NCBI GenBank assembly: GCA_035221665.1
Contig: CM069157.1
Span: 12,710,001 to 12,774,000 of the forward strand
DNA: 64,000 nucleotides
From: Okamejei kenojei
Taxonomy: Eukaryota
Direction of reading: 5' to 3'
Shown piece by piece: positions 1 through 64,000 of this stretch. The translations under genes were made by a program, and so were the position numbers. Under the pieces are notes generated by a model. The model ran no database searches and had not been told where the DNA came from. It saw only the letters and a program-made list of their open reading frames with translations. Within the stretch, counting starts at the first letter, position 1. The number at the start of each line of letters is the position of its first letter.

Positions 1-759
1 ATTAAGTATGATTTTTATATATGATACGAGTTATGGAACATCGTTATTACAAATATTATCTAGAATTCATGGCCAAATATATTCAATGAAACAGAATACC
101 AATGATTTCTAATGAGTACCAAAGTGGATGTTAAGTTTGTAAACCAATCTTGCAGAAATCATAATACATGTATTGGTGAAACCATTGTGGTTTCCATATT
201 TTCTACGATGATGCTTGTAAGTATCAAAGCATCATGTAAATACATATCGTTTTTGTGCAAAACATCTCAACACCAACTCCAATATCTACTGCAGTCTCCA
301 CTTTATAAAAGTATTCTATTAACGTGTAATAGATGTTCTCTCAGGAGTTGATAATCCTCCAATAAGTTGCAGCCTCCATGCTGAACCCATGATTGCCAAC
401 ACGATAAAGCCTAATGACCTTGGACTGGTGGCCACATACTCTCAATAAGAATAACCGCTCTGTTTAAGGAGGGAAGGAGACCACAGAGAACTGTAGACCA
501 GTTGGTTTGACGTTCGTAGCATGGCAAATGCTGGAATCTACTATTAAGAAACTGGTTAACAGACCATTTAAAACTCAGGAACTCATCCAGTCAAGCAGCA
601 TCTGTGGAGAGAATGGACAGATGACATTTTGGGTTGGGACCCTTCTTCAGGCAGATCTTTTGTGTCTATCTAGAAAATAATAATATATTTTGGGCTAAAT
701 CAATACAGGTTTATGAGAGGAAATAATGTTCAATAAATCTGTTACAAGCGTTTTCAGAC

Positions 760-1580
760 TCTGACATATATAAGGGAGATCGAGTAGATGTGGACATGGA
801 CTTTCTGAAGACCTCGGATAAAGTGCTACACAAGAAGACATAAAACAAAACTAGAGTACATTAGATTGGGAGTAACATACAGGTATGCAATGGGTGCTGG
901 AGCCCCAACTGTTCACAATCTCTATTGATCATTTGAAATAGGGACCAAATTGTTGATGCTATAATGGTGGATTCAACCGTGGGTTGTGAGGTAGATGCAG
1001 AAATCCTTCAGGGTAATAAGACCAGGTTAAGTGAATGGATATAGATGTGACAGATGGAATATAAGGTGGGAAAATACAAGTTCACCCACACTGATAGAAA
1101 AAAAACTCACACCTTTTAAAATAATGAATTACCGAAAACAATGGTGGGATCTCGATAACTTTACTGACAATTAATGAGCAGGCTCAGCCAGCAATTGAAA
1201 GGACAAATAGTTTACTGCACAAGGAGTTAAATGGAAGAGTAAAGATGACTTACTCTAATCACATAGAGTTTTGGAATATCATCGTCTCCCTACCTAATAT
1301 GCAATATATCTGCAACACACAGTGTAAGGTTTCATTGGATTTATTATTTTTATTCTAATTTTCCCAAAGTTAGTGAATCTGTCTAATTCTCTCCTCAGTA
1401 GTGCTGCAAGAGGCTCAGTCACTGAGTATATTTAAGGCAGAGATTAATTGATTTTTGGAAATTACTAGAGACTGGAAATTTGCTTATTGCAAGAAAATGA
1501 CACTGAGGTGAAATACAGCGACAACCTTATTGAATGACAGAGCTGGCATGAAGGACTAAAGTGCCTATTCCTGGTTCTAT
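760..1580 (+). mobile_element. Old degraded CR1-type LINE fragment (RT C-terminus to 3' UTR)
   Basis: Degenerate matches to CR1 RT landmarks (DFxKAFDKV at ~800-825, GSVLGPQLFTI at ~890-920) and the CR1 3' end 'gaaggactaaagtgcctattcctg'; many frameshifts. Confidence 0.65.
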
Positions 1581-2248
1581 TTCTGCTGTTAAACATTGGC
1601 GACCACCTACCTCCTCCTCTTGCCAAGCTTCATCGCTAATTGCTATATTGCGGAGTATTACAGACCTAACCTCTAATTCAGCTCCACATTTGAACCTTAC
1701 GCAAAGTACAGCTACTATTATTCCACTGCAATTAGGATTTCATGTCCCCAAAAAAGCTATTTTAAACACTATTAAGGCAATGGATAAGATGATGTGAATC
1801 GGATTCACCATAAGGTTTATTATCTACCATCTGTTGGCTTCAGACAGTGGTTAGAAACTTGTTGAAGAATTAATGGCAGGATAATGAAAATAACCAGAGT
1901 ATATTTAAATATAGATGTCAAAAGTATACTAATCGGTGATTAGGCAATGCTCCATCTACAACACGGCCTCTGTGGTATCATGTTTAGGAATTACATCATT
2001 AGACAATATAAGAATAGTCTTTGCCAATGAAAATTAAAATCCAAATAAAAGTCTTTGAAACCACAGTCATTAAAACCAAACTGATACAGCTGCGATGTCC
2101 ATGTATTGACAAAAGTCCACAATGAAAGATCTGATGTTTTGACTTGTTTTCTCACTCTCCCAAACGTTTACAAAGTCAGTCCAACTTAACACCAAGAGTC
2201 ACATTTGACAAATTTAAAACAATGTCACAGAACACAATATCCAACTCA

Positions 2249-2254
2249 TTTATT
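2249..2254 (-). promoter_or_regulatory. Candidate polyadenylation signal of HMBOX1-like gene
   Basis: AATAAA on minus strand followed by a GT-rich tract (TTGTGTTCTGTGACATTGTTTT), about 680 nt downstream of the putative stop at 2932. Confidence 0.4.
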
Positions 2255-3039: not shown

Positions 3040-4598
3040 CTAATGGGAGAGAAGTAGAGCTTTTTTTTTAACATTTAATTTAGTTAGTTTGAATGTTTAA
3101 ATTATTTTTAAAGGTGTTTCTTTAAAACATATCCCTAACATATCCAAAAAGATTTTGCACGTTAAAGGCATTCATAAATATTCAATATAAATGTCATATT
3201 TGACAGCCAGTGTGTTTGAGAGTGATTGTTCATCAACTAGTTTATAACGTGTCATTAGTTATGCATGGACATAAACTTTGAGGATATTTAAATGTGAAAT
3301 ACATCATATCTCTCCTGATCTTGTGGCCACTTCTCACCATCAATCATAATGTAGAGGTCAGTGACTACAATCAGCGACTGCAATTTTGTGCTTCTTTGGC
3401 CACAAGGGTACAGAAGCAGAACAGCCCCAAAGTCAGAGTTTCTCACTACTCAATCCAACATCTTTCTATAGTTCACATTGGATACTGACCACATTGTATT
3501 AATAAATGCTATTCTTTCAGGTTTTTAAGGTCATGCTGATGTCTGAAAAATCATATCCTCCCACCATGTGTCTTTATATTTAAAAATATCAATAACTACT
3601 TGAAAAAAAAAGGTTTGCATCTTATCCAAGCTATTTTAAAGCTTTGCAATAAAAATAAAATATCCCTATTACCATTTCCAATTGTTGTTCAAGTTCCACA
3701 TGTGTCAGGAATTTCTAGAACTGAGAAGGTTTCCAAACATATAAATTAGGATGAGTTATCAAGTCAGCCCATCAAGCCAGCTCCATTATCTAATAAGGTT
3801 ATGGTTGATTCGACAGTAAACTCTAATTCCATTCTAACTGCACATTTTCAGCCTCAAGAATCCTCTATTTTGTTTAATATTCAAGATTTTCCTTCCACCA
3901 CCTTCTGAGAAAGAGGGTTACAAAGGTGCTTGGCCCTCAAAGAGAAAAGGTTTGCCTCATCTCTTTATAAATGGGCAACCCCTGATTTTTAAACCCATTT
4001 CTAGATTCATACGAATGAAACATCTTCTCCCTATCACTCAAGACTCCTCAGGACTGTAAACAAGTGCCCTCTCACTCTTCTAAACTCATGCTGTGACAAG
4101 CTTACCCACTCAACCTTTCCTCATAAGATAAACTGGCTGAGTATATATTCCGATTTAATTCCAATGCATTAACATCCTTGGAGAAAAGGAATAGGTGATG
4201 TTTCGGGTCAAGACCCTTCTTCAGACTGAAGAGATGCTGCCTGACCTGCTGAGTTACTCCAACATTTTGTGTCTATCTTCGGTGTATACCAGCCTATGGA
4301 GTTCCTTCCTATGCATCAAAATCCTTTATGGTTTCACTACATAGCAAGACAGTAAAGCCATACTGTGCAGATTCACATCATTCATGTCAATGCCTACCAA
4401 TAAAAAATGATTTCAGCTTGACCTTAAATTATATACAGTTAAACCTTTTAGTCTGTCAATATGCAAATAGATTTAGATAATAGGCTAGAGGTTGATAATA
4501 AATTGTTTACAACATATTTATTTAACATTTCTGGATAAAATTAGAAAGATTTAAAGAAGTAACTTTTGTAGTTCTAACCTCTAATAGTCGTGACTCAC

Positions 4599-4693
4599 TT
4601 GCTCACAGTAGTCGTTGACCTCAATGTCATCACTATTGGAATGTCCACCAGGACTCTGCACATCAATCCCATGACTCTCCAGGATTGCTGCTT
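4599..4693 (-). CDS. HMBOX1: HMBOX1-like coding exon 7 (EAAILESHGIDVQSPGGHSNSDDIEVNDYCEQ)
   Basis: Near-identical to the HMBOX1 post-homeodomain segment; AG acceptor, GTGAGT donor, 95 nt, phase 1 to 0. Confidence 0.93.
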
Positions 4694-5249
4694 CTTTGAA
4701 AAGAAGAATGATCAGAAACTAAACTTAACTTTTGAAAATAAATAACTACATTTAAGTATCTTACAAAAGAAAATCAAACTGAATGCAATAAAGTATGCTT
4801 TTTTTCCAGGATGATTAGAACCCCAGATGGTGCTGAATCCAAATCATTGTCCTTCCTGTCACCTTGGCTGGAATAAGATGCACGAGTGCTGACTGAACTT
4901 GGAACTTGAGGTATTTTTCTTTTGAGTGTTTTTATCAACAGTTATTGCAAACTCAAATTTTTTATTTCAACTTTCTTTGAAAGAAATACTATTTGAAGGA
5001 AATACATTCAGGAACTGTTGCTGCCATGTAGCACTTAACAATGTACTCAATTCCCACCAGAATAGTAACAGTCTCACTCCACATTTGGCCAGTGCTGTTT
5101 TGTTTTCAGCACTGTGAGTTGAATTGTTTGCTTGAACCATGTCATGTCACAGCTTATAAATCATCTCAACATCAGTGGAGAGCTGATGAAAATGGATGAT
5201 ATTAGAAAATGAATATCCTCTGGATATTCAATTCTGCAAATGTATGCCT

Positions 5250-5582
5250 AGATAGACTAGACATAGAAAGGATGTTTCCAGTAATGGGAGAGACTAGGAC
5301 CACAGGGCACAGCCCAAATTAAAATAATGTACCTTTAGAATGGAGATGAAGACAAATTTCTTTATCCAGAGGGAAGTAAATCTCTAGGATCCATTGCCAC
5401 AGGCAGCTATGGAGGCTGACATTTGTATTTTTTAAAGTGAAGATAGCTAGGTTTTTGATTAATAAGAGCATCAAGGTGACAGGGAGGAGAATGGGGTTGA
5501 GAGGGAAAGAGACCAGCCATAATCAAATGGTTGCGTAGACTCGATGGGGCAAATGCCCTAATTCTGTCCTATGTCTTATGGT
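5250..5582 (+). mobile_element. CR1 LINE 3' fragment
   Basis: RMFPxxGExRTxGHS-like segment and CR1 3' UTR ending in a 'ctatgtcttatg' tail. Confidence 0.75.
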
Positions 5583-5705
5583 GTGAAGCAAGTATCCTAT
5601 GGGCAGTAAATCTTTTAAATAATAATTCTGGTTGAAGTTTCAATAGTTAAGTCAATCATTTGGAATTGATTGTCCTTACCGTCAAAAGCTTTCTAATTGT
5701 CTTAC

Positions 5706-5801
5706 CTATGTTTGCTCTTCTCTTCATCTCCTTCCGACGATTGGCAAACCAGTTGTACACTTTCAGAGGAGTAACTCGCTCAAACTCTGATAGTTTTTTA
5801 C
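5706..5801 (-). CDS. HMBOX1: HMBOX1-like coding exon 6, homeodomain helix 3 (GKKLSEFERVTPLKVYNWFANRRKEMKRRANI)
   Basis: KVYNWFANRRKE signature of HNF1-class homeodomains; AG/GTAAG boundaries, 96 nt, phase 1 to 1. Confidence 0.96.
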
Positions 5802-5865
5802 CTGAATAATGAATATTGGGAAAGATAGATATTAAAACAAAAATCGCAATAAATAGATAAAGTTA

Positions 5866-6140
5866 AAGCCCTGTCCCACGGTACGAGTTCATTCCAAGAG
5901 CTCTCCCGAGTTGAAAACAAATCAAACTCGTGGTAAGCACGGAGAATGAACATAGCGGGTGCGTTGGAGCTCGGGGACGTCTCTTAGCACTAACGGCTGG
6001 TAAGCACAGCAAGACACGTGAAGATTTTCAACATGAAGACCCGAGTACCGACGAGTGGCCATTACCGTAAATCACCGAGTTCGAATCAGGGCAAACTCGG
6101 GAGAACTCTTGGAATGAACTCGTACCGTGGGACAGGGGTT
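5866..6140. mobile_element. Non-autonomous PIF/Harbinger-type MITE
   Basis: About 45-bp terminal inverted repeats (aagccctgtcccacggtacgagttcattccaagag... / ...ctcttggaatgaactcgtaccgtgggacaggggtt) flanked by TTA on both sides (5863-5865, 6141-6143). Confidence 0.85.
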
Positions 6141-6882
6141 TTAGTACTGCAATTAACCAGTGTCGCCATCTTTCCATTTTTTAATAACCAAACTCGATAG
6201 TAAGAACATTGAATAATTGCTTTATTATGATTACTAGCTTGAAAACGGCTTTTAAATTGTATGGGAAAATTTGTGTAAACTTGGATTTCTGTAAGTCAGG
6301 TAATTCTAAACCCTGTATATCATATTATTGAATTGAAGATATCAGCTTTATTAAAAGTCTCAGCTAATTGTTCCCGTTATTAAGTTACCAAAGATAGCAG
6401 ACTTCAAATGGTTACCCACATTAAATCCATAATTGTTTTTGAGATTGTACTTGTATTGGAGCAATTATTTTTTGTTTTAATCTGTGGCTAAAGAAATTTA
6501 AATGCATCTTTGTGTTGGGAATTAACAGCTTTGCATGTCAATGATTTAAATAACTACAACTCGGATTAGTATTTCTCCCAAAATGCTAATTACATCACAG
6601 ACATAGCATTTTTGTCAATATATCAATTATATATCTTTCCACAAACAATATAATTCATTTGGAAATCTACAAGGTTTGTTGTATAAATATTATACAGGTA
6701 ATTTTCAAAAAAGTGCCTTTCCACTAATCCTATTTTCAATAATAAGATATACTGCTGTGTACGATAATGGTGTTTGCAACACCTCATAAATTAAACTGGG
6801 CACTTCATGAATTCTTCTCACTGATTTCTTGCTTTTAATAAAAGAAAAACTGCAAATGATGAATGGCTGCAGGTGCTCATAC

Positions 6883-6965
6883 CTGGTTTCTGTATTACTG
6901 TATTGCAAGCGTTTGCAATTTCTTCACGTTTTGCCTCATCCGGATACTGATTTTCACCAAAATAA
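6883..6965 (-). CDS. HMBOX1: HMBOX1-like coding exon 5 (SYFGENQYPDEAKREEIANACNTVIQKP)
   Basis: Matches HMBOX1 homeodomain helix 1/2 region; AG/GTATG boundaries, 83 nt, phase 2 to 1. Confidence 0.96.
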
Positions 6966-7282
6966 CTGCATTGGAATGGAAAAATACAAGGATACAATTT
7001 TTGAAGCAGGCATAGTTTAATTTTAATATTTGGACCACTGTAGTTAAATCAGAAGAATATTGAATTGCTTTGTCACTTTAATGTGCAATTGGTTATTGGT
7101 AAACATGAGGTGGTTGGATAAAGTTCAACCTCCATCTGTGAGGTAAATTGAGTTCTCAGATGTTTTTTCAAGTAAGTAAGAATTTTGAGGCACAAATTCC
7201 ATCAAAGTGGCCATGATATAAAGACAATTCACATCATACAAAACAAGTTCACAGCTAAATGAAATCCCTTGTTTAGAAATAC

Positions 7283-7562
7283 AGCGTTGAAACGGGCCCA
7301 CCATGTCCATGCCAACCATCTACACTAGTACACCAGTTCTACGTTATCCCACTTTCGCATCCCATACACTAGGGGCAATTTACAGAAGCCAATCAACCTA
7401 AAAACCTGCATGTCTTTGGAATGGGGGAAGGACACCAGAGCACTGAGAAGAATGCCACTCGGTCACAGGGAGTAATGTACAAACTCTGCACAGGCAGCAT
7501 CTATAGTCGGGATCAAACCCAGATCCCTGGCATTGTGAGCAGCAGCTCTACCACTGCGCCAA
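7283..7562 (-). mobile_element. tRNA-derived V-SINE (HE1-like)
   Basis: Reverse strand reads ggcgcagtggtagagctgctgc (A box), ggtttgatccc (B box) and the V-domain 'ttccaaagacatgcaggtt'. Confidence 0.8.
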
Positions 7563-7628
7563 TTGTGTCTGGCCAATCTGACAAGCATTTCTCCAGGAAG
7601 CACTTCTCCAGGCTCTGATACAAATAAG

Positions 7629-7832
7629 ATAGACATAAAAAGCTGGAATAACTCAGTGGGTCAGGCAGCATCTCAGGAGAGAAGGTATGGGTGCTGTTTC
7701 AGACCCTTCTGAAGGGTCTCGACCCGAAACAGCACCCGATCCTTCTCTCCAGAGATGCTGCCTGACCTGCTGAGTTACTCCAGTCTTTTGTGTTTATCTT
7801 CGGTTTAAACCAGCATTTGCAGTTCCTTCCAA
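7629..7832. repeat. Palindromic Penelope-derived short element
   Basis: Inverted arms (gctggaataactcagtgggtcaggcagcatctc / gagatgctgcctgacctgctgagttactccag) around a partial gaagggtctcgacccgaaac core. Confidence 0.8.
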
Positions 7833-8799
7833 CACATTTCGTCTGATGCAAATAATGCAGCTCTCTGACCAAGGGCCTCAGATCTGAAGCACTGGCTCTG
7901 TTTCTCTCTCTGCAGATGCTTCCTGCATTGTTGAGTGTTTCTGCTTTTGTTCCAGATTTCCAGTATTTGCATCTAATGCAAAGAAGGTTTACTGTTCCAC
8001 AGGGGATTTTCTGATAATTTATTTTTAACTGATGAAAGAATCTCTTTAAAATGTTAACTAGTTGACAGGCCGGAGTTTTTGCTATTATCAATCTGTCCTG
8101 GTCACTGTGTATGCTTTGGAATATAGAAGGCTGAAGAAAAGATAAAATTATGTTTATAAAATTAAGGCGACAGAATCAGTGATCGGGTGAGCCTACCTTT
8201 ATTACCTGGGATACTAATAACTGGAGGACAAAGATTTAAGATTTTTTTATAGAAGGATTGGAGGGGAGTTAAGGAAATTATTTTTTACTCGCGACTTGGG
8301 TGTCTGAAAAGGTGGCCAACAGGAAGTCACCATCACATTTAAAACATAATCACTGCCATGATAATTGGTACAACTTAAAAGGCAACAGAATGAGAGTCCA
8401 TAAGAGGCACAAATATAATGAGTGTGAATAGCCTAATTTAATGTTATGTTTCCATGATTTTATGCTGTTGAGACACAAAGTGCATTCAGCCTCAGCCATG
8501 GCAATTAACAACCAGATTTAGGTGACAAATTGTAATTTATCTCTGTATTTTTACCACTTAGCTCTTCCCTTGTTGCAAAATGCCTTAAATAGAGCAAAAT
8601 CATTAATAAATGTTCATTGTTTGCTCTTCTTATGAAAATCTGGATACAAAATCAACCTTTATTCGCCTTTGTTCCAAAAACACAAACACACCACTTGTTG
8701 GTTAGCAGTTGGAAACTTAATATTTATCATCCAACCCAGATTAATATGGGAGACAAGGCTAAATATACACGGTATGAGTAAGTCCTTCCTCCTACTAAC

Positions 8800-8947
8800 C
8801 TTTCCATGACAGACAGGCACTCTTTGCGCCAGGTAAATCGACTTCCTCTTCTGAGACGAAAGTTTCCAGTCACCGGGCTGACATTTGATCGCCATTCAGG
8901 ATCTTCTGTTGTTGTGGTTGAAACAGGCCTCATACTTAAAGTTGCTC
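8800..8947 (-). CDS. HMBOX1: HMBOX1-like coding exon 4 (GATLSMRPVSTTTTEDPEWRSNVSPVTGNFRLRRGSRFTWRKECLSVME)
   Basis: FRLRRGSRFTWRKECL homeodomain N-terminal arm of HMBOX1; AG/GTTAGT boundaries, 148 nt, phase 1 to 2. Confidence 0.96.
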
Positions 8948-10724
8948 CTGGATAAAATGGATAAAAAGAAATACTATTGATGATGGGTTATGTTTAAGTT
9001 GTTTTTTCTAAATTATTTCAAACATTGTTGACATGATGGAAGATAGTTGAGTTTTACATGATAGGGAAAACTGACAGTCCATTGAAGGAGATGTAATGCT
9101 GTGAACTGTGGTTACAGAGAAACAAATTAATTGATGGAATGTTTGTCTCCAACAGTTTTTTTAATTATCAAACTATATCTTACATTATGAATCATGATGT
9201 AATTTTGTTTGCATAATTACAAGTTATTACACTGTTATACAGGTTATAAAAGTATTTGATTTGTATTTTTAGGACAACATGATCTGTAAGTGGATGCAGC
9301 TATTTTATATATTTCAGTCTCCGCTACTGTGTTCTAATAGTCAGAGGGGATCAGCGATTGACAGCTGAAGGATTCTGCAATTTTTGCTGGACATGTATGG
9401 GTTCCTTCCACACACCTGTTGTTAAAAGGAAACAACTTGAAGGACCATGGATCAGAAACAACTTCAATTCTCTAAAACTTACTTGGTGGGAATTAGTTAT
9501 TAACTGCGTAATGTAATGTTTCTTTTCATTTTAAAGCAAATGTTTTCCTTAAAGATAGATCACAGAATTGTTACAGCATAGGAAGACAATCAACCCATGT
9601 CTATATAGGTCTATACATTAAAACACCAATATAACCAATATCATCCTTACACTTCTGTTGTTGGCCCAGTGTGATGATGAGTGTGGCATCAGATTGGAAG
9701 AGACACACAGTTCAAAGTTGGGCCCAAGCTGCTGCCCAACTAAATCAGTGTCATCTATCCTAACAGCAATTAGTAAGCAAGAAGCAATCCAGTAAGTCAA
9801 AGTCTTTTCTGATATAGAGTATCTGTGGATGGGCTGGTAAATGAAACAGGGGACTTGTCGTTAAATGATTCATGGTAGAGCGGGATGGACTGTCAGTTGC
9901 TAGACTGAACTTGCTGTGACTCTGCCCCACTTGCACGTTCAAGGGGTGCTCCCTGCACGATAAGTACTTTTCAACATTGCTCAAAAGGCCTAAGCCAGGG
10001 AAACGGTGTGCTTCATTCATTACAGATGTCGACAAGGAAGAAAGAGAGAGAAAAAATGCATTTACTTCTTGATTGTTGTCAAATATGCTAGTTTTAGCTT
10101 AAGTGTACATGCACGAGTTCTGAATTTTTTCCCCAGATATAGATGAACATTTCCCCTACCTATTCCTCCTGTCTCCTTTTTTATCATTTAAAGAACTCAA
10201 AGACTAATCCTCTGCACTCTAAACTCAAGTAAGTACAAGCCAAGATAATCTAGAATGAACCTATTTCCCTGAACAGAGAGGTAAAAAATTAAGGTGGTAT
10301 GGAATTAAAAGTACAGTAAAAACTCTTTTATACAACACGTGTACCAATTATGCAGTTGGCCTCATGTTGGCTCAGAAATTCCCTATTATCTTCATCGATC
10401 TATTATATTAATGTAATTGTCAATGTAACACATTCCATTATGCATCAGTAAATCAGCCTCACCTGACTGAATTAACATTTCTTAAAAGGAAGCTAAAATC
10501 CAGCTTCTGAACGGAAAGCAATATCTAGCTGTCATGATGATGGACGGGGAGCTCCATCAGCACTATCCCAATTCTAGCCCAAGAGATCGCTCAGTACTGT
10601 CCCATTGTTGGGTCAGGATTTCCACAGTGCTCCCCAATGTCAGCTAGGGGATCCCACAGCAATGCCCTGATGTTAACTCTGTAGTGCCACTTGCAACAAC
10701 TTGGAGCTCAATGCTCTTAAGACT

Positions 10725-11435
10725 GTGGAATCGATTGTAGAACTTTAGGAGAGCTCCCCCTCCCCTCACCCCACTCACCATCAACAACACCACAGTCACA
10801 TCTGTGGAGTCTTTTAAGTTCCTGGGAACCATCATCTCCATGGACCTTAAGTTGGGGGCTACCATCGACTCCACAATCAAAAAGGCACAACATCCTGCGG
10901 CAGCTGAGGAAGCACAATTTGCCACAGGTAATGATGGTCCAATTCTACACGGCCATCGTAGAGTCTGTCCTCACCTTCTCCATCATAGTCTGGTTTGGCT
11001 CAGCCACCAAGCACAATATCCAGAGGCTGCAGCGAATCGTCCGATCAGCTGAGAAGGTTATTGGCTGCAACCTTCCCTCCATTGACGAACTGTACACTGC
11101 AAGGGCCAGGAAGCGAGTGGGCAAGATCATCTCTGACCCCTCTCACCCTGGCCACAAACTCTTTGAATCACTTCCCTCTGGAAGGCGACTTTGGACTGTC
11201 AAAGCTGCCACAGACAGACATAAAAACAGCTTTTTTTCCAATAACCAAAAATCTCTGTAGACTCCTTTTGCTCTGGTATTTTATTTAATTCACATATTTA
11301 ATCAAAAATGTTTTATTATTAATGTTTAATGTTTTATGTATCATTCTTAACTGTCACTGTATGTCATGTCACTTGCAGGTGGAGCACCAAGGCAAATTCC
11401 TTGTATGTGAATAAACTTATTAATTCATTCATTCA
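10725..11435 (+). mobile_element. Rex1/Babar-type LINE 3' fragment
   Basis: ORFs VESFKFLGTIIS...KKAQ and FYTAIVESVLTFSIIVWFGS...RLQRIVRSAEKVIG...DPSHPGHKLF, typical Rex1 RT C-terminus; ends in aataaa plus (attc)n tail. Confidence 0.85.
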
Positions 11436-11482
11436 CTTAATGAAACAATCCAGTCAACAAAGTGCTGGATAATCCGTTTTTT

Positions 11483-12438
11483 AGTCATAGAGTAATACAG
11501 TGTGGAAACAGGCCCTTCAGCCCAACTCGCCCACACCAACCAACAAAGTCTCGGCTACCCACGTCCCACTTGCCTGCGCTTGGTCCATAACGCTACAAAC
11601 CTGTCCTGTCCATGTACCTGTCTAACTGCTTCTTAAACTATGGGATAGTCCCAGCCTCAACTATCCCCTCTGGAAGCTTGTTCCATACACCCACCACCCT
11701 CTGTGTGAAAAAGTTATCCCTCGGATTGCTATTAAAACTTTTCCCCTTCACCAAGAACCTATGTCCTCTGGTCCTCGATTCCCCTACTCTGGGTAAAAGA
11801 CTGTGCATCTTCCTGATCTATTCCTCTCATGTTTTTTTATACCTCCATAAGATCTCCCCTCATCCTCCTACGCTCCATGGAATAGAGATCCAGCCTACTC
11901 AACCTCTCGCTATAGCTCACACCCTCTAGTCCTGGCAACATCCTCGTAAATCTTTTCTGAACCATTTCAAGCTTGACAATATCTTTCGTATCACATGGTG
12001 CCCAGAACTAAACACAATATTCTAAATGCTGTCTCACCAACGTCTTATACAACTGCAACATGACCTCCCAACTTCTATACTCAATACTCTCACTAATGAA
12101 GGCCAAAGTGCCCAAAAGTCTTTTCGACCACCTTATCTACCTGCAACTCGACCTTCATTGAACCATGCACTTGTACCCCTAGATCCCTCTGCTCTACAAC
12201 ACTACCCAGAGGCCAACCATTTAATGTGTAGGTCCTGCCTTGGTTCTACATCCCAAAATGCAACACCTCACACTTCTCTGTATTAAATTCCATCAACCAT
12301 TCCTCCGCCCACCTGCCCAATCGATCCAGATCCTGCTGCAATCGTTCACAACCATCTTCACTATCGGCAAAACCACTAACTTTAGAATCATCAGCAAACT
12401 TGCTAATCTTGCCCTGCATGTTCTCATCCAAATCATTG
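11483..12438 (-). mobile_element. CR1 LINE 3' portion
   Basis: ISKFADDSKV...LQQDLDRLGRWAEEWLMEFNTEKCEVLHFG; same family as the copy at 61745-62975. Confidence 0.9.
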
Positions 12439-14034
12439 AAAGATTAAAGGGGAGATGAAACATATTTTCAATCAGAGGATAGTGAGAGTCTGGAATTCAC
12501 TGCCTGAAAGGTAGTAGCAGATGAAAACCTCATTACAAGGGTACAAGAGACATACAGTTGAAACGCTGTGACCTGCTAGGTCCTTCCTAGTGCAGGAAGG
12601 GTAAATTAGGCTGGTCGCTCTTTCAACCAGCACAGACATAATTGGCTAAATGCTCTCCTTCTGCATTGTAATTTTTTTAAGAGAAACCATTTAGTGCAGA
12701 ATATGTTCTAGCATTGTTTATTTTGTTTTCTATAAAATGTCTGAATTTTTTACTGACCTCTGCCTACTGTGCTCTGCTTTTTTTTCAGACCACATGAGAG
12801 TGGCGCTTTGCAGAAGTCTCCTCATCTAAACGCATTGAAATGTGGAAGCATTTAATTTGTTTAATTTTGTTTAGCAATTACGAATGCTATAAAAAATAAT
12901 CAGCTTGCTAAGTTACTGAAGGGTTTACTGGACACGTATTCTGAATCAGGCAACTCTGAAATGTCCGTCAAAAGGTTAGTTAATTTTCACGTTAAATTTG
13001 CTTTCCAAGAAATTACGTTCATTTATTCTTCCAGGCTGTTAATTATTTAAGAACATGAACACACAAGAAATATAAACAAGAGTAGGCCATTTTACTGGAG
13101 TTACTTGGCTGGTCAGGCACCATCTCTAGAGAACATGGATAGATGACATTTAAGGGCAGGTCCCTTCCTCTTCAGAAACGTCACCTATCCACGGTCTCCT
13201 GAGATGCTACTTGATCCGCTGAATTACTCCAGCACATTGTGTTTTTTTTTGTAAACCAGCCTTGTGTCAAGGCCACTTTACCCTTTCACTCTGGTGTACG
13301 TTCATGTATCTCATTGCCATTTTCCTGCATTTTGCTCAATTCTCTCAATGTTCAGAAATCTATCGATTTCCACTGAATAAACTTATTGATCGTATCTCCA
13401 TAGCCCTCCCAGGTAGAACATTTTAAAGATTCACCATCCTTTATCCTAATTCTCCAATTCATGACTTTTTTATCCATTGAGTTATCCTCATGAAATATAG
13501 GCCTGATTGACTCAATCTATCTTCTTATGGCAAATCATATGAAACTGTCCAGGATATGAACTTCCCTCCCTCTATTGAAAGATTATTTTTAAGATAAGGA
13601 GATTAAAGTGCGCACGTGTTCAGCGACAATCTCACTGCAGTCTTTATAACTGCGGTGATATCCACACTCCTTAACTTAAATACTCTGATTGCTTCAGTGA
13701 GTCGTGTCCAAAATAACATCTCTTTCCATTTATGCATTAACTTTGCCTGGTTTTATGCTTTTGTTTTGTGCACCAAATAGGATAAATGTATCTTTTTTCT
13801 AATTACATTCTAACTGCCCTGCTGTTGCCCATTTTCTAAGCATGCATGGATCCTGTTGAAGCTTATTTATATCCTCGTTCTTACTCAATATTATAATCCC
13901 ATCCAGTAACATCCCAAAATAAAAGTACTGGAAACTCAAAAGGAAAAATGATAAAAAATTGAAGGATTTTTCTTTGACACAACTTAACCATGTCATCTAC
14001 AAATACAGATAATCCTCATCTGAATGTAACCCAC

Positions 14035-18040: not shown

Positions 18041-18112
18041 CTTGAGAAACATGGAATTCCATAAAAGGAAAAAAACCAAAGTAAATCCTATTTAATTTGT
18101 GAGACCAGTCTA

Positions 18113-41250: not shown

Positions 41251-41299
41251 CACTGTCAAGTCCTCCCGCACGGGGTGTGCCCGCGCCTCCCCCCCCGCC

Positions 41300-49387: not shown

Positions 49388-50096
49388 TCAAAGGTGTCGC
49401 GTTATTGCTTCTACTTTTTTAGTATTTTGTCGAGACACATCATCTTAATCTATTTTGGTCATATATCCTTGACTCTCCTATTCTCAAAGCGTATATAACT
49501 TATGTCAGTTTTAACTTGCGGATATTCTCGGTGTCTCGGGCAAACAATTTAATCGGAAGACAATATCCTTGCCTGGAAGACACCCTGATTGATGAAAGAT
49601 ATACGTCGATAGTTGAGCAGATCGCATGACGAAATATAAGGTCGGTAGTTACTAGCGGCACAAGAAAAAAAAACCTTCCGTCCAGCACGAGTGAAGAATG
49701 CGAACACAACTCGCTTCCTCCAAACTCCACACACCCTCCCTCCCTCCCGTCACAAGACCTGTTTCTTCCCTCGTGGCAGATTTTTTCTCCCACCAGTTTA
49801 CAGTTTGTCTACCGGCTACAGCGGTGAGGCGACAGCATCCCAAGGGTGGGTGGGGAGGGAGATGACTTCAGGTGAAGGACATGCCACCAGTGCATCGGTT
49901 GGCCTTTTAAACTGTTTACCACACTGCAGCTGGCAGTACCAACAGCCACGGAAAATATCGGTGCGGCGAGCCTCAAAGTGCTACTGCATTATTTATAAAT
50001 GGCGCCTGTTTGCCCTTCACTGGCATAACGTCATGTCTTGTACGCACAATTGTTCTGCATCTGTAATATCCATGAGCAACTGTCAGCATATGGATG

Positions 50097-50290
50097 TGTA
50101 GGAAGGAACTGCAGATGCTGGTTTGAACCGAAGATCGACACAAAATGCTGGAGTAATTCAGCGAGACAGACAACATCTCTGGAGAGAAGGAATGGGTGAC
50201 GTTTCTGGTTTAGACCCGAAACGTCACCCATTCCATCTCTCCAGAGACGCTGTCTGTCTCGCTGAATTACTCCAGCATTTTGCGTATATT
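50097..50290. repeat. Palindromic Penelope-derived short element
   Basis: About 68-bp near-perfect inverted arms 50141-50208 / 50215-50282. Confidence 0.88.
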
Positions 50291-50984
50291 TTCAGCGTAG
50301 AGGGCTGCTTTACCTTGTTACAATACGCAACCCATATTTCCCCTTCCTTCCTCCTTTGCAAGTTGCATCCACCGTCTCTTTTCTCGGAATCTATCAGAAA
50401 ATCTCACCTTGTGATCCGACTCCCTTCTCTGTAAAGTACCCGAGAAGAATAGCAAGTCAGAACATTCTCAAAATGAACGTTTTTTCCCCCTTTATTAATA
50501 AAACCGTCAGGGGAAACGTTATTAAAGAATGGAAATACAAAACACCACGGATGACTCAGATGGGTTGGAAAAATGCAGTACATATTGTTTAGAGATGGAT
50601 GCTAAGCCTGTTTAATGTCGGAAATATGAACTCGCTGATTAAGTCAGACTAGAGGAGGGGTGGAAGATTGCAACCTTCACGTGGTCCGCCCTGTTTCGAC
50701 TAATGCAATCAACTCGACGTGCACGCAACAGAAGATCAAATAGAACAAGTTAGTTGTCCTACAGCTTTAGGCTGTGCACGCCACACGAAAGAAGAAGAGG
50801 AAAAGAGGAGAGTGAGAAAGGCCAAGGTTGCTACAAGGATCTCGACCCGACACGTCGCCTATCTCCTTCGCTCCTTAGATGATGCTGCTTGCTGCTGCAC
50901 CCGCTGAGTTTCTCCAGCCTTTTGTGTGCCCGAGGTTGCTACACTGTTGGTTACAGTTACCGCAGCCCCTCACACACACACACA

Positions 50985-54519: not shown

Positions 54520-55267
54520 GTAAGATATTAGGCCAATACTCCAATTTCCAACTATGCGGAAATGTATTTCAGAAAAATGGTATACTGCACTTTTGTTTGT
54601 TTAAATTGTGATTTAAAATCATTGACATTTCCAGAATAATTCCTACGGTGTGAATTAAACCAGCAACGTTAACTTGATTATATTCACTAAATTGTCCAAA
54701 ATGAGAGAGTTTAACTTGAGCCCCCCACATAATTGTCCTGCAGACTCTCCATTGCCCAGACACTCAACTGGACCAGCCAGGTAAATAATGTGGCTGTATG
54801 AGCAGGTCAGGCAGGGAGTACTATGTCAAATGGCAACCAAAAGACTTTTCACATCCACAAATTAAGCCAGCAATGTGCCTGCCTGGATGATTGCATCTGC
54901 ACTGACATTTGAGAAGTTTATCATTGAGACAAAGCAATCTGCGTTATTTGTAGCCAATCCACTACCATAAAAAAAATATTCCTTTTACCACTAGCACACC
55001 ATGGTTGCAGTGTGTATACCATCTACATTCTGCATTGCAGTTACATTGGAAACTCCAATATCACTTGCAAACCAATTTGCTGCCTTCTATCTATTTTCTT
55101 TTAATGAAATGGACTGATTTATGATCCAATTCCTTATGTCCACCATTGCTTCATATCCATACTTTCGCTTACCGTTCTCATATTTAAGACAAACATTTAA
55201 CCATTAGTTACTATTTTGCTGAAGAATTCCACTATCTTTGTGTATAGAAGAATTTCCTAACCTGAAA

Positions 55268-56460
55268 GTAGACACAACGCTGGAGTAACTCAGCAGGACA
55301 GGCAGCATCTCTGGAGAGAAGGAATGGGTGACATTTTGGTGTCGAGACCCTTCTTCAGACTGACGTCAGGGGAGTGGGCAGTACAGAGATCAAATGTAGT
55401 CGGAGACAGTAAGACTGGTGGGAGAACTGGGAAAGGAGTGGGAATGGAGGGAGAGGGAAAGCAAGGGCTACTTGAATTTAGAGAAGTCAGTGTTCATACT
55501 GCTGGGGTGTAAACTACCCAAGCAAAATATCATGTGCTGTTCCTCCAATTTGCGATGGGTCTCACTCTGACAATGGAGAAGGCCCAGGACAGAAAGGTCA
55601 GATTGGGAATGGGAGGGTGAGTTAAAGTCCTGAGCAACCGGGAGATCAGGTAGGTTTAGGCGGACTGAGCGAAGGTGTTCTGCGAAACTATCGCCCAGCC
55701 TGCGCATGGTCTTGCCGATATACAGGAGTTGACACCAGGAACAGTGGATACAGCAGATGAGATTGGAGGAGGTGCAAGTGAACCTCTGCCTTGCCTGATA
55801 AGACTGTCTGGGTCCTTGAATGGAGTGGAAGGGGGAGGTAAAGGGACAGGTGTTGCATCTCCTGCGGTTGCAAGGTAAAGTACTTGGAGATGTTTGGGTG
55901 AGAAGGAACGAGTTGACCAGGGAGTTGCGGAGGGAACGGTCTCTGTGGAAAGCAGAAAGGGGCGAAGATGGGAAGATGTGGCCAGTAGTGGGATCCCGTT
56001 GGAGCTGCCGAAAATGTTGGAGGATTACAAGCTGTGTGTGATGGCTGATGGGTGGAAGCTGAGGACAAGGGGGACTCTGCCCTTGTTACAAATGTGGGAG
56101 GGGGAGCAAGAATGGTGCTGCCGGATATCGATGAGACCCCAGTGAGAGCCTCTTCCTGGGCGCAAATGCAGCATAGACGGAGGAATTGGGTGGAGGGGAT
56201 TGAGTCTTTACAGGAAGCAGGGTGGGAAGAAGTGTGGTCTAGATAGCTATGGGAGTCGGTGGGTTTGAAATAAATGTCAGTTGATAATCTGTCTCCTGTG
56301 AAGGAGACGGTGAGATCTAGAAATGGTAGGGAGATGTTGGAGATGGTCCAAATGAATTTGAGTGCAGGATAGAAATTAGCCGTGAAGTTGAAGAAATCTG
56401 CGAGTTCTGCATGGATGCAGGAGGTAGCACTGATGCAGTTGTCAGGTAGAGTTCAGGGAT
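55268..56460 (-). mobile_element. Penelope-like retroelement, internally deleted 3' part (RT C-terminus, GIY-YIG endonuclease, terminal repeat)
   Basis: LPFLDLTVS...FKPTDSHSYL (RT), then NLIYCIHC..C..LYIGKT.RRLGDSFAEH...LPVAQDFN (GIY-YIG); terminal repeat with degenerate hammerhead core at 55328-55360. Confidence 0.9.
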
Positions 56461-56934: not shown

Positions 56935-58434
56935 ATAAAAACTCAACTTGGATTTGGGTGAGAAGATTTTCAGTGTTAATCTCTTATTACCTAGTAAGAG
57001 AAAGGAAAGAGCACAGCTTTTTGATTTTGGCTGTAGTTACTGTCATTATGGGGAGACAGTAGCATAGTGATAAAGTTACTGGTGTAATGACCAGAGAGTT
57101 GGACTATTAATCTGATGACAGGAGTTAATACCCCAATTTTGGGAGAAAGGGAATATCATTAAATAAACATTGAGTAGATGAGGCTCTTCCAAGAAATTGT
57201 GAGATTATAGTTGTTTTCAGTCATATATAATTGAGATTTGAATCTAATGAATTATTTAATTCTGACATTGAGCCTACAATGTTTTTATGCAAAAATAAAA
57301 AAAAACCTTAGAATAAAAGTTGTGAACTGTGTTTTGTCTTGTTTTGAAACTGTAGTAAAGAACAACTTCTTATCGAGTCCACACATAAGATTAGAAGTTG
57401 TTCAGCACACTTCTCGGCATCTGCATACAATGGTGTCTGTCTTGCGCTTCTTGTGCGTGGTGGTGGAAAGATTGGTGAAAACAGGGCCGCGACATGAATG
57501 CTCTTTCCTTGACCCCATTAAAGAACTGACTAAGTTTATTTTCAGGTTTTTGTTGTTCAATGCTGCTTGTATGTAACCCAGTTAAGATGCTCAAGGTGAT
57601 TCTCTCCAAAGCACATTCAGTTAATGCATCACAAAAGAATGTGAATGAATTCCACCAACATGAAGTGGTCATCTGTCACCAGAGCTAAAAGTTTAGGCAC
57701 AAGTTTGCATCCTGTTGGTTTGCATGTCACTTATGAACAGGATTCATAGAATCAGCAGCAATTAAGTAGCTTTCAGCAAATCCAAATGTCTAGTTATACA
57801 AACCTTATGGGATGCTTTTAAACTGTGAAAATGGCACTGCAGTTAATATAACTAACTTGCAGCTCCAGTGAACTGGGTTCGAATATGATCTGTGCTGAAT
57901 GTGTAGTTTATATTCTCCCAGGTATTTCAGACCTTTCCCACATTCCAAAATGGTGTTAATTAATTTTTGCAATTCATTTCCCCCCCCCCCCCCCAATGTA
58001 GGATGGATGATGGGGTGCAGTGGTGAGATCTTCTAATGGGCATGTGCGAAGGAATATGTTAAAAGAAAATAAGTGGGGAGAATGGGGATTGCTCTCAGCT
58101 GGAATTAATAAATACACTTCAGTACGATTTTACACAGCAAAGCTCCTGCTTAAAAATTAAATATGTCATTTGTTCATTTAGTGATTAATCTGCTATTCAA
58201 TTAGTTGCCAGTTAATATTCAGCTGCAAGTGTGACTTTTTAACCCAGTGAATTACAGTTTACCAGACGTCAAGCATTTTGCTCAGTGTTACGATGTAAAT
58301 TCTTGCATTGTCTGCATTATAGAGCTATGACATTCAAACTGGGGTAGTGTTTAAAAAGGGCAAATGTTTAATTAATTGTACATTTTCCAAATGTAAATTC
58401 TTAATTTCAAATAGAGTACCATTCTGGTTGTGGT

Positions 58435-58570
58435 TAGACAAAAATGCTGGAGAAACTCAGCGGGTGAGGCAGCATCTATAGAGCGAAGCATAGATGCTGC
58501 CTCACCCGCTGAGTTTCCCCAGCATTTTTGTCTACCTTCGATTTTCCAGCATCTGCAGTGCCTTCTTAAA
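58435..58570. repeat. Palindromic Penelope-derived element lacking the central core
   Basis: tagacaaaaatgctggagaaactcagcgggtgaggcagcatctat / atagatgctgcctcacccgctgagtttccccagcatttttgtcta. Confidence 0.85.
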
Positions 58571-59657
58571 CATTCTGGAGGACCAATAGCTGGGATATAT
58601 TGCCTTTCATTGGTTAGTTGTGTATGACTGGAAGCTCATAAATTTGTGGATATCCAAAGTATTCATTTAAAAGTAACATAAATATCCCAAAGATAGACAC
58701 ACAATGCTGAAGTAACTATGTGGGTCAGGCAGCATATCTGGAGAAAATGAATAGGTAATGTTTTGGTTGGGACCCTTCAGTTAAAAAAAAAATCCCTGCA
58801 CCTTACATTTACTCTATTGATTGTATGAAATGTGCCTTCTTGAATAGGTTCTTTCTTTATTATTCCTGTTTATCTTTTTTGTATTATTGTTACTTCTCCC
58901 TTTCTGCAAAAATAATATGCTGATTGATTATTAGACAGCTTGTACTCGCTAAAGCAGCTTCAGTGCAGCTGAATATTCTGGGGTGTTTTATGAAGGTGGG
59001 GGGGTTGGAAATAGTTAAACGGGGGAAAATTGATACCAAGGGGGACTCTCCTCCCTAACCATAGGTGACAACAGAGAGAGAGTTAGGATGTGATAGTTTT
59101 TTTTTTAGGATAAGGGAAAGGCTCTGGTTAATTAAGATATTCCTTGATATAAATAATACTGCACAATATCTATACCATCTGAGACTTAGTTATATTGATT
59201 TCTAACAAACCTATTCGTTTCCGTTTTGGGACGTATGACAATTACTTGTCTCTTGTTTATATGGCATGCAACAGATATTTTGCTAGAAGATCTATCTGTA
59301 CAATCTTTTCTTAATTGTGTACAACCATAATTGATGTAAAAGTTAAAGCATTTATTAATTAATCCCAGATTCATTTATATAGAAGTTTACAATTTTTGCA
59401 TTAAGGAATTTTATTGTGTATTGTAACATCATAAAATAAGTTTGTCAAAGAATAGTTTGTTTATTGGCACTAAAAAGAATTAAACAAATCTGTACAACAT
59501 CAATTCCAGACCCGTGTGAATATACTTTTACAAAGTGAATATCCCAATGAAGATATCTACAGATTTCATTTTTTAAATTATAAGTAAGATTGGATAGTGC
59601 AATAGAGCTTGGTTATATGTGGCAGTATTTGTTAACTTTTTTAATGTTTGCTTTTAG

Positions 59658-60830: not shown

Positions 60831-61744
60831 TTATAGAATGGCTCAATCACCTTTATTTGTTTAAATGACATTTGTGACAATGCCTGACTCGTACTGTTTC
60901 CCACAATATGTGTAGCTCTTGATAATAGTCTAATTAAAGAAAACCTCGACTCTAAACTGTAGTCTAACACTGAGTTTCTTGTAACTATGCTTTGGTTGAA
61001 GGCAAAAGTAAACACTGAAGAAGAGAAAGATGATTGCTTTTTCTTTTAATGTGCCATGATTTCAGTAAAGCTTTTATGTCAAGGAATGCAGATAATGAAT
61101 ACAAGTGTGTCGAGATCAATTTTGAGCACTGTTTTCTGATACAGCCGAGTTAAAGCTAACTAGTATATAAGGACACTGTTTCAAAAAAACCTAACTAATT
61201 CAGATGTAAGTGTTATTAAAAAAAAATGTCTGCCAATCTGGGCCATTTCCATACAAATACTTTATTTTCCTGCTAGTGTTTGGATTCTAACAATTTCTGC
61301 CCATTCTATCCAATGTCATACAATACATTGACCTTCACTGGTTTCTCACCGCTTAAATTTGGAAACCTTAAGTTCTTTGTACTAGAAATGTAACCACAAT
61401 TAGTTTTATACTATGACTTTGCCACTTAGGAATTTAAAATGATGGTATGGTATGGAAACCGAACTTTTGTAGGTTTTTTCAATTTTCACACTGCATTTAA
61501 CAATGTGTTTAAATATTCTTAATGGTTCAAATTTTATTACATTTTCTCAAATGCCAAATGCTTAACAAAGAGCTTGTGTTTAATTTGGCTACTGAAATTG
61601 TTGCCACCTTCTTAGCTTTACTCCTTGTCTCAGTGGTTGTAATTTTGTTTGAAAAGGTACTTGTATCCTGAGATGGTTGGTCTGTTGGAGTCTGACATTA
61701 GGAAGAGAGCTAAGTGTTTAATACATCGGGCACAGTATATCGTG

Positions 61745-62975
61745 TCCTTTGTCCTACAGTAAGGCATTCGACAAGGTTCCGCATGGTAGGCTGCTCTGGA
61801 AGATTAGATTGCATGGCATCCAAGGAGAGATGGCTGAATGGTTAGCAAATTGGCTCCATGGAAGGATGCAGAGTGTGATGGAAGGTTGCTTCTCGGACTG
61901 GCAGCCTGTGATTAGTGGTGTGCCTCGGGGTTTGGTGCTGGGCCCATTACTGTTTGTCATCTACATCAATTATTTGGATGAGAACATACAGGGCAAGATT
62001 AGCAAGTTTATTGATATAAAAGTGAGTGGTTTTGCAGATAGTGAAGATGGTTGTGAAAGATTGCAGCAGGATCTGGATCGATTGGCCAGGTAGGCTGAGG
62101 AATAGTTGATGGAATTTAATACAGAGGGGTGTGGGGTGTTGCATTTTGAGATGTCTAACGAGGACAGAACCTACACAGTAAATGACAGGTCTCTGGGGAG
62201 TGTTGTAGAGCAGACGGATCTAGGAGTGCAGGTGCTTGGTTCCTTGAAGGTCGAGTCGCAGGTAGATAAGATGGTCAAAAAGGCTTTTGGCACATTGGCC
62301 TTCATCAGTCAGAGTATTGAGTATAGAAATTGGGAGGTTGTGTTGCAGTTGTATAAGATGTAGGTGAGAGACAGTATTTAGAATAAGCGAGTTCGGTATT
62401 CCATTCCGACTGCGCATACCCAGGTCAAAGTTCACTATGCATACTCAGCCCTGGAAAGCAGTGGACATTCATTTCTTCTGTTTTTTCCAGCTTTGATTCT
62501 TCTAGGTAAGAAAATACTGCTTTCAAACTTTGAAATTGTTGTATTTATTGTTCCTTTGTTATGGACCTCTATTCCTTGGAGCCTCTATTCATTGGAGCGC
62601 AGGAGGGTGAGGGGTGATCTTATAGAGGTGTACAAAATCATGAGAAGAATAGATCGGGTAGATGCACAGTCTCTTGCCCAGAGTAGGGGAATCGAGGACC
62701 AGAAGACATAGGTTAAAGGTGAAGGGGAAAAGATTTAATAGGAATTTTGAGGGGTAACTTTTTCATAGAGGGTGGTGGGTTTATGGAACGAACTGCCAAA
62801 GGAGGTAGTTGAGGCTGGGACTATCCCAACGTTTAAGAAACAGTTAGACAGGTACATGGATAGGACAGGTTTGGAGGGATATGGATCAAGCGCAGGCAGA
62901 TGGGACTAATGTAGCTGGGACATAGTTGGCCAGTGTGGGCAAGTTGGGCCGAAGGGCCTGTTTGCACACTCTATT
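61745..62975 (+). mobile_element. CR1 LINE 3' portion, interrupted by ~185 bp of non-CR1 sequence (62382-62566)
   Basis: SKAFDKVPHGRLLWKI...SGVPRGLVLGPLLFVIYIN...; SLERRRVRGDLIEVYKIM; CR1 3' UTR. Confidence 0.9.
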
Positions 62976-63769
62976 GGGGACACATAGTCATAGAGTGATA
63001 GTTTATCTAAAACTATCCCTGACGGAGGACTTATTGCATTTGAATTGCAATTTTTGTTTTGTCAACCAGTTACATTGCTAAAATGTCCAGGAAAGCTCTA
63101 CTTATTATTAAGTAAAAAATACAAGGCAATTATAATAACCAAAGGATGTTTTCCATAAGTTATTTTGATTAGAGCTTGTAGCGTACCTTTTCATGCCCCT
63201 AAGATATAGTAGAAGAAAGCTGTCATTTGTCAAGATCACAGGTGATATGCCTTCAGCTTTTCTGCCCACCCTGCTTGCCGCCCATCGCCAATATTAATCA
63301 ATTCCACTGGATTCTAAAATCCATCAATTTTAGCCCCTATAATACTGAATTACTTGTGCGGTAGGTTTGGAGCAACTGATTTAATAACTTTGTTGTTTTT
63401 GGTGAAGAAATAGTTGTAAACACTATTTCAAAACTGGTTCCAAGCAAACAGCTACTGTAGAGGTACGGAGAAACAAGGAACAGCAGATGCCGATTTATAA
63501 ATGACACAAAGTGCTGGAGTAGGCGGGCCAGGCTGCATCTCTGCAGTATATCAGTCTGAAGAAGGTTTCCGATTTCCCCCCCCCCCCCCCCCCCCCCGCA
63601 AGAGGTAAGGCAATATGTTTGCAACACCTGGCCAAAACGCGAGCAGCGAATCGGACCCCTTGTTTAACCTCACATCTTTGCTGGTATATGGCGTTGATAG
63701 GAGCAATTCTGCACACCAAAACTTCTGCCTATTCTCTGAGAACAGCCACTACACAAATCACGACCCATT

Positions 63770-64000
63770 TAGATGAAGGAATGGGCGGTGTTTCGGGTCG
63801 AGGCCCTACTTCGGACTAATGTCAGTGGAAGGGGTGAAAAGAAGATAGAATGTAGGCGGAGACAGTGGGAGAACTGGGAAGGGGATGGAGAAAGAAAGCA
63901 AGGGCTATCTGAAGTTAGAGAAGTCAACGTTCATACCGCTGGGGTGTAAACTACCCAAGTGAAATATGAGGTGCCGTTCCTCCAATTTGTGCTGGGCTTC
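63770..64000 (-). mobile_element. Penelope 3' end running off the window
   Basis: Closely parallels 55315-55560 (gtttcgggtcgag..cttc, gagaagtcaacgttcataccgctggggtgtaaactaccc). Confidence 0.85.

Follow-up and report, generated by a model that had tools for sequence, protein, structure and literature searches.

Short copies of a Penelope-like element terminal repeat in Okamejei kenojei as probable dead-end insertions

The 64,000-nucleotide stretch of the Okamejei kenojei genome analysed here (GenBank assembly GCA_035221665.1, contig CM069157.1, positions 12,710,001 to 12,774,000; hereafter the window) is crowded with short repeats that carry the core of a minimal hammerhead ribozyme. On sequence grounds, the repeat belongs to an endonuclease-bearing Penelope-like element (PLE), of which several subfamilies carry it as their 3' terminal piece. 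Short copies of the repeat, or stubs, may be either members of a family that propagates itself or dead-end insertions made straight from the RNA of the full element. The second possibility is favoured here with a probability of roughly 0.7, because variants shared by short and long copies, the uniqueness of inversion junctions and the gradation of short copies into long ones speak, in what was a limited test, for repeated production from the full element rather than from a separate master.

The repeat and its parent element

A search with a profile iterated from the window's own copies (threshold E<=0.05) found 46 arms, as individual copies are called here, spanning 3,440 bases in total; the reversed window, used as control, gave one match at E 9.9. 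A first-pass annotation, made from the window's sequence alone, had reported more than 20 recurrences, and all 24 positions that it listed were matched by the profile. The high density that it noted also stands, but because the 46 arms sit at about 34 places the figure is one place per ~2 kb rather than roughly one per 3 kb. By profile match coordinates, 24 arms belong to 12 head-to-head pairs, of which a stricter pairing script recovers seven. Sixty random 10-kb stretches of the same genome contain 264 matches (0 in reversed controls), and the 278 arms found in 69 random genome stretches extrapolate to ~1.1 million arms, or 2.9% of 2.76 Gb. Exact matches to a 36-base motif from the youngest subfamily number 44,147 in the genome (control, 0).

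Each unit consists of the minimal hammerhead, ~60 nt of further sequence and an optional tail of ~35 nt, and there are several subfamilies; positions within the repeat are counted from C3 of the hammerhead. The consensus, CAGT-CTGAAGA-A-GGGT(CTCG/TTCG/CCCG)ACCC-GAAA-CGT(C/T), bears out at the level of subfamilies the central consensus (CTGAAGA/GGG..CCC/GAAA/CGTY) that had been read from the window. Positions +30..+85 of an older subfamily have also given rise to a 55-bp tandem satellite without a hammerhead, present in many arrays (L150-L152, L159, L162-L165, L168-L172) at about 1.9-3.5 Mb of G000:C1; a peak of 5' ends at +32, considered as a possible cleavage product, proved to be this satellite. 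The architecture of the repeat is already known from the PLE literature, and a literature search, in which supplements (with possible Repbase-type descriptions or skate hammerheads) were not covered, found no paper on this skate/ray repeat among those listed.

Three remnants of the PLE open reading frame (ORF) were detected in the window, each followed by a repeat in the same orientation (Table 1). The first-pass annotation had placed such remnants upstream of the repeat at 55268, 63780 and 38393. The first two are confirmed, and the third remnant, at 46846-47100, had been missed; at 38393 neither tblastn nor the DNA or protein profile detected an ORF remnant, and there is just a six-residue look-alike of the ORF end with a pyrimidine-rich stretch. 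Elsewhere in the genome, the repeat lies ~250 nt past the stop codon in 20 of the 20 loci fetched for long frames, in agreement with its original identification as a Penelope-derived terminal repeat, and downstream of 75 of 84 ORF ends (some loci counted twice), mostly at 100-290 nt depending on the subfamily. A first look with an endonuclease fragment gave 144,987 candidates in the genome. Locus L034 holds a partial tandem whose unit measures 3,958 bp and in which the ORF begins directly after the repeat and its tail, as in the pseudo-long terminal repeat (pLTR) arrangement. At 6770-6800 (-) of L034, just past the tail, the likely start codon falls at a strong donor-like AAG/GTATG, which, together with the CAG before the hammerhead, could permit splicing or back-splicing between pLTRs; no such joint was seen among the best 15 of 74 contig joints from three other organisms, in runs not verified as RNA.

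The PLE protein P0004 matches RVT_1 (E 1.7e-6, slightly below the curated cut-off) and, weakly, GIY-YIG (E 0.029), and several of its homologues carry PF01541; no Pfam match was found for the window's own PLE fragments. The protein shares 63-69% identity with proteins of sharks and rays, and a CX2-5CxxC linker lies between the reverse transcriptase (RT) and endonuclease (EN) domains in P0004 and P0001. By these features, rather than by a tree, the element fits a Neptune-type (or Nematis) PLE, the linker being described as a feature of both (PMC8557442).

Formation of the short copies

Copy ends were compared in a young set (n=102) made up of the first 100 matches listed for the 36-base motif, with neighbours, all within 5.2 Mb of one chromosome; it cannot contain 5' ends beyond +44, and some of its assignments to the untranslated region (UTR) are alignments that stopped early. 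Young short copies align at 95-100% to ORF-linked ones. At the sole site compared, the base following the query motif, the variants are distributed as T20/C10/A1 in long copies and T46/C19/A6 in short ones, and the two groups have similar tail frequencies (7/27 and 14/42). Short copies grade continuously into long, 5'-truncated copies with UTR and ORF sequence: 56 of the 5' ends lie at -7..+7, 11 at +8..+26 and four at +27 or further (one of them at +27..+30), while 31 copies reach the UTR (13) or the ORF (18).

The heap of 5' ends spans -5..+2, with a smear on either side. In an independent set drawn from many chromosomes and picked by similarity to stretches beginning at +5 to +8, 100 of 217 copies start at -6..-1. 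In contigs from the three other organisms, in runs not verified as RNA, the loose ends are heterogeneous and lie at -2..-4, and coverage of the ORF's 5' part is about a thousandfold lower than that of the repeat. Since the 5' ends lie at the 5' edge of the hammerhead, the templates would have contained an uncut hammerhead. Untemplated extra bases were found at 14 of 20 ends at -7..-2 and at 6 of 18 ends further downstream. An extra G at the 5' edge, as would be expected from a cap, was present in 7/12 versus 0/12 in a first set and in 0/8 versus 1/6 on replication, and is not claimed because the replication failed. The 3' ends of young copies cluster at +90-95 and +126-132. A CCAGC motif precedes each of these two 3' ends. 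A few copies run 3-6 nt beyond the tail into the ORF leader, a weak observation for which microhomology is possible. Target duplications are about 14 bp long, and duplications of at least 9 bp flank 24 of 131 solo copies, compared with 1 of 393 mismatched controls.

Many copies are joined as inverted pairs, nearly always head to head: 166 such pairs and four tail-to-tail pairs were found among 987 copies, and 47 and two, respectively, at random loci, where 94 of 278 arms are paired. Of the 26 pairs at >=95% identity, 25 have exactly one tailed arm (13 expected, p 4e-7), as do 62 of 77 and 96 of 122 pairs in further sets. The tailed arm is shorter than its partner at the 5' end in 42 of 62 cases, longer in 15 and equal in five. 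The 107 pairs at >=88% identity comprise 101 junction types, the recurrent ones being mostly microhomology or palindrome joins, and 44 of these pairs have an exact target duplication of at least 8 bp, most often 14 bp. An inverted copy with a one-sided tail has been described for PLEs (PMC8557442, PMC3846280), and self-priming on an antisense template was proposed to account for it (PMC3846280). The differing 3' ends of the two arms would fit two priming events, one per target strand, better; by analogy, the anole PLE protein in purified form cuts both strands and extends them, starting at two internal sites (PMC11167929). The counts suggest that the end of a PLE forms about 3% of this genome with one third of its arms in hairpins, and that hairpin arms in introns would be able to form double-stranded RNA.

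If the stubs are dead-end products, reverse transcription would begin at an internal position of the RNA, near +93 or +126, with a template not cut by the hammerhead, and the complementary DNA (cDNA) would mostly run only to about -3, probably the 5' end of the RNA. Both target strands would be primed, one per start site, and the far ends of the cDNAs would be joined, giving a head-to-head pair with one tailed arm. In vitro, the anole PLE is reported to initiate internally at two sites and to prime on both strands, with an uncleaved template and a protein-assisted hammerhead (PMC11167929). Tentatively, and with somewhat less than even confidence, the stubs may be taken further, as records of the insertion reaction itself: a dimeric RT-endonuclease would prime both strands from two fixed sites of one uncleaved RNA that begins with the hammerhead's first bases; cDNA from the upstream site would lead and run off, that from the tail site would trail and stop earlier, and the two cDNAs would be joined head to head. 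Such a reaction would explain the inverted pLTR and one-sided tail of all endonuclease-bearing (EN+) PLEs and would place the role of the hammerhead outside template processing. Candidates for the stop near -3 are an RNA start within the pLTR, an internal, initiator-type promoter having been reported for Drosophila virilis Penelope (PMC2377424), and a roadblock at the pyrimidine tract with its CAG.

Several points weigh against deriving the stubs from full-element RNA. The young set is confined to the first 5.2 Mb of one chromosome, and a resolvable target duplication was found in only 24/131 and 15/103 solo copies. With the cap G unreplicated, run-off from a capped RNA is only a candidate cause of the 5' pile-up, and a fixed 5' start would also be expected of a family resembling short interspersed nuclear elements (SINEs). 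Finally, two pairs 55 kb apart (L122 and L126, G000:C1) have different target duplications but the same complex junction, down to one substitution, a hint that hairpins can be re-mobilised as a unit.

The roadblock would make the stubs ordinary 5'-truncated copies from the 3' repeat, and the heap at -5..-1 a pause of the RT, for instance where protein binds a polypyrimidine tract with CAG, which may be a 3' splice site, or at the TCAG-N-CTGA palindrome. In this explanation, as in the preferred one, the stubs are dead ends; the two part only over what causes the 5' edge, and the roadblock is rather unlikely. In ORF-linked copies the core is indeed immediately preceded by a pyrimidine-rich UTR ending in CAG, several inversion junctions fall on the palindrome, the end of an intron maps to the 5' end of helix I in D. 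virilis Penelope (PMC4209133), and the failure of the cap G to replicate agrees with a pause; however, extra bases are commoner at the -7..-2 ends, as expected where a template ends, and no GT..AG joint occurred among the best 15 of the 74 contig joints. The idea that the ORF end is spliced to the CAG preceding the core was rejected, there being no such joint among the same 15.

Less probable still is a non-autonomous, SINE-like family, in which transcription of each stub would begin at a start of its own near -3 and the PLE protein would retrotranspose the transcripts in trans. It would account for the sharp shared 5' edge, which lies at a sequence resembling the initiator YYA(+1)NWYY, for the finding that only 7 of 181 random copies reach at least 12 nt upstream of the core, and for the one complex junction that is repeated. 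Non-autonomous PLE derivatives are also known (PMC8557442; bioRxiv 2026.07.22.740005). Nevertheless, no variant was private to short copies at the one site tested, the gradation into UTR- and ORF-bearing copies is continuous, and the inversion junctions are nearly all unique, all of which counts against the separately amplified non-autonomous family proposed by the first-pass annotation. The few bases of ORF leader at some 3' ends, absent from a solo stub, point the same way if they are not microhomology, and the anole PLE, if it is a guide, requires ORF sequence downstream of the start sites (PMC11167929).

The hammerhead core

The extra base after A9, G10.1-C11.1 and the palindromic 15.2-16.2 are all present, with CG at 15.2/16.2 in 226 of 251 descriptor matches, so that the assignment to minimal type I hammerheads with a palindromic stem III holds. 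CUGANGA, GAAA and U16.1-H17 are invariant in all four subfamily consensuses (361 copies), between which 3 of the 32 positions of -4..+27 vary (H17 and two positions of loop II), as do 14 of 20 aligned columns just downstream of the core (partly through an indel shift) and 5 of 32 positions in a second conserved block, +48..+79. Because the core is little changed between subfamilies, it appears to be constrained in master elements, though it is not the sole constrained part. The first-pass annotation had staked its reading on such conservation and on covariation in stem II; the former was found between subfamilies, but stem changes are one-sided (U-A/U-G) and covariation does not exceed that of shuffles (0.086 versus 0.089), in a test on 32 copies made weak by the closeness of the subfamilies. 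Across all subfamilies the body (+48..+55) and the tail (+108..+115) remain complementary over 8 bp, with 97% of cells paired and no sign of covariation. The possibility that the unit as a whole adopts another stable fold was rejected, since five tailed units scored z -1.35 to +0.37 and none of them folded better than shuffles.

As had been noticed at first pass, most individual cores are mutated, 45 of 46 in the window: CTGANGA is kept in 8 arms, GAAA with the palindrome and UH in 10, and both in one (18118, +). The search with a minimal descriptor that had been suggested as a check matched this copy alone in the window (shuffles, 0.1), and it exceeded shuffles in 690 kb of random DNA, with 39 matches versus 0-1, extrapolating to about 1.6e5 intact descriptors genome-wide. 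No hammerhead was among 16 Rfam matches at E<=10. Stem I is weak, as previously stated, with 2 bp in 190 of the 251 descriptor matches and not the 4-5 bp of helix I in the minimal class; a 2-bp helix I has been described for the D. virilis hammerhead (PMC4209133). Folding predictions give stem II a probability of at most 0.01, and a hammerhead-like dimer -9.7 to -12.7 kcal/mol compared with -26.6 kcal/mol for the free cofold. The hammerhead, broken in all but one copy of the window, is likely idle there. The minimal hammerhead ribozyme (min-HHR) class is weakly active as dimers and cleaves poorly in vitro (PMC4209133), and the present features agree with this class as well as with the hammerhead of the anole PLE, which is assisted by protein (PMC4209133, PMC11167929). 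Selection would act on the hammerhead only in master elements, where it is probably protein-assisted or dimeric, and the core would decay as a passenger in stubs.

That the dispersed hammerheads are active, dimerising between copies to cut host pre-mRNAs or to make retrozyme-like circles, is very improbable: the excess of intact descriptors and the invariant core would suit such activity, whereas the 2-bp stem I, the folding predictions, the poor cleavage of minimal hammerheads, the single young copy starting at +27..+30, the lack of strand bias in the HMBOX1-like gene (16:16), the absence of any hammerhead-bearing tandem array from the window and the mere four direct tandems among 278 random copies all oppose it.

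Features of the window and comparison with known systems

Table 1. Copies of the repeat, remnants of the parent element and host coding exons in the window
Feature	Position	Strand	Remarks
Solo stub	18112..18234	+	only window copy with intact minimal hammerhead: C3 at 18118, UUCG loop, GUU triplet, 2-bp stem I
5'-truncated PLE	55260..56452	-	RT-thumb and GIY-YIG remnant with frameshift 55471-56452; ~120-nt 3' UTR; repeat 55260-55362
PLE ORF end, 3' UTR and repeat stopping at about +40	63775..64000	-	ORF remnant 63887-64000
Old PLE endonuclease remnant	46373..47100	-	remnant 46846-47100; diverged repeat 46373-46466
Young stub, 99% to ORF-linked copies	16607..16696	+	starts +3; 11-bp target duplication; adjoins older minus arm 16550-16607
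Young stub, 97%	50835..50931	+	starts +6; 10-bp target duplication
Head-to-head pair, last intron of HMBOX1-like gene	4171..4316	.	minus arm keeps CTGAAGA and GAAA; stem III broken
Head-to-head pair	7625..7839	.	
Head-to-head pair	13088..13263	.	
Head-to-head pair, centre at stem II palindrome	21027..21224	.	
Old head-to-head pair, weak matches	23367..23543	.	
Head-to-head pair	23853..24016	.	
Head-to-head pair	37906..38130	.	
Head-to-head pair with additional partial plus arm	38898..39204	.	
Head-to-head pair	47739..47945	.	
Head-to-head pair, centre at stem II palindrome	50094..50301	.	
Head-to-head pair without hammerhead	58432..58574	.	arms start +36 and +44; tail on plus arm only
Solo decayed stub	577..656	-	
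Solo decayed stub	16136..16257	+	
Solo stub with tail	21647..21768	-	
Solo stub without hammerhead	22183..22242	+	
Solo stub	36646..36744	-	
Solo stub	37725..37814	+	
Decayed stub, pyrimidine-rich sequence upstream	38387..38465	+	no ORF remnant detected
Solo stub	45365..45454	+	
Solo stub	47545..47663	-	
Solo stub	58686..58778	-	
Stub with short inverted core fragment	63495..63571	-	
HMBOX1-like coding exons	4599..16051	-	first exon 98% to shark and ray proteins

The HMBOX1-like gene continues past the left end of the window, and its last exon was not found in the window. Its exon at 15599-16051 (-) is 98% identical to one shark/ray paralogue and 55% identical to skate HMBOX1 or HMBOX1a, and on account of this difference the gene is regarded as a second paralogue. 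The first-pass annotation had singled out copies sense to its pre-mRNA, such as that at 4195-4228; because the gene is on the minus strand, this copy, at 4171-4229, does lie in sense orientation within an intron, though with a disrupted stem III palindrome. An effect on the pre-mRNA finds no support, as there is no intact sense copy, the arms left of position 41000 number 16 on each strand, and the sole intact core (18118, +) is antisense to the gene.

An exon at 56845-56934 (+) resembles the C-terminus of ZNF706 (Pfam zf-met2, E 0.056). Between it and the minus-strand HMBOX1-like gene lies a GC-rich stretch (40700-42350, with a 29-34-bp minisatellite at 41633-42335), possibly a shared promoter region. 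Other long dispersed repeats (11494-12390, 18400-19440, 42530-43900 and 61700-62980, two of them with RVT_1 matches) are presumably pieces of CR1-type long interspersed nuclear elements (LINEs); 42534-43194 is itself an inverted pair. A frame at 10721-11260 (+) with an ALKBH8_N Pfam match is presumably also a LINE-type retroelement fragment, and 27491-27789 is occupied by a perfect inverted repeat of 74 bp whose arms are separated by 151 nt.

As a ribozyme finding, the repeat is nothing out of the ordinary, since PLE ends are known to carry minimal hammerheads and most of the present copies are dead. Its value is as material on how PLEs make their inverted repeats and tails and on what their hammerhead does, since a large and partly young family yields countable rules (one tail per pair, a shorter tailed arm, 5' ends at the edge of the core and not at the cleavage site) that a purified-protein assay could test.

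Non-LTR retrozymes (bioRxiv 10.64898/2026.07.22.740005) likewise derive from the pLTR of PLEs, contain type I hammerheads and encode no protein. They are described as head-to-tail arrays with a complete hammerhead per unit, whereas the copies studied here are solo or head-to-head and have target duplications, and no head-to-tail array with at least two complete hammerheads exists in the window. Minimal type I hammerheads share the extra base between 9 and 10.1, G10.1-C11.1, a palindromic 15.2-16.2 without loop 3, and an occurrence as many dispersed single copies with some pairs on opposite strands; here, in contrast, helix I has 2 bp (as in the D. virilis variant) instead of 4-5, helix II has 4 bp, and sequence varies little between subfamilies. 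The EN+ PLEs described in PMC8557442 and PMC3846280 have in common with the skate element an ORF with RT and C-terminal GIY-YIG domains, the CX2-5CxxC linker, pLTRs in partial tandem, a head-to-head inverted 5'-truncated copy, a 30-40-bp tail at one end only, and target duplications. The skate element differs from those descriptions in that most insertions are reduced to 90-135 nt, that an estimated ~1.1 million arms exist, and that 5' ends are heaped at one place. Poseidon PAc of Anolis (Frangieh et al. 2024, PMC11167929) also has two 3' ends one tail apart past the hammerhead and insertions that contain the uncleaved hammerhead; it belongs to another clade and was studied biochemically, whereas for O. 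kenojei the one-tail-per-pair rule and the 5' heap are genomic counts.

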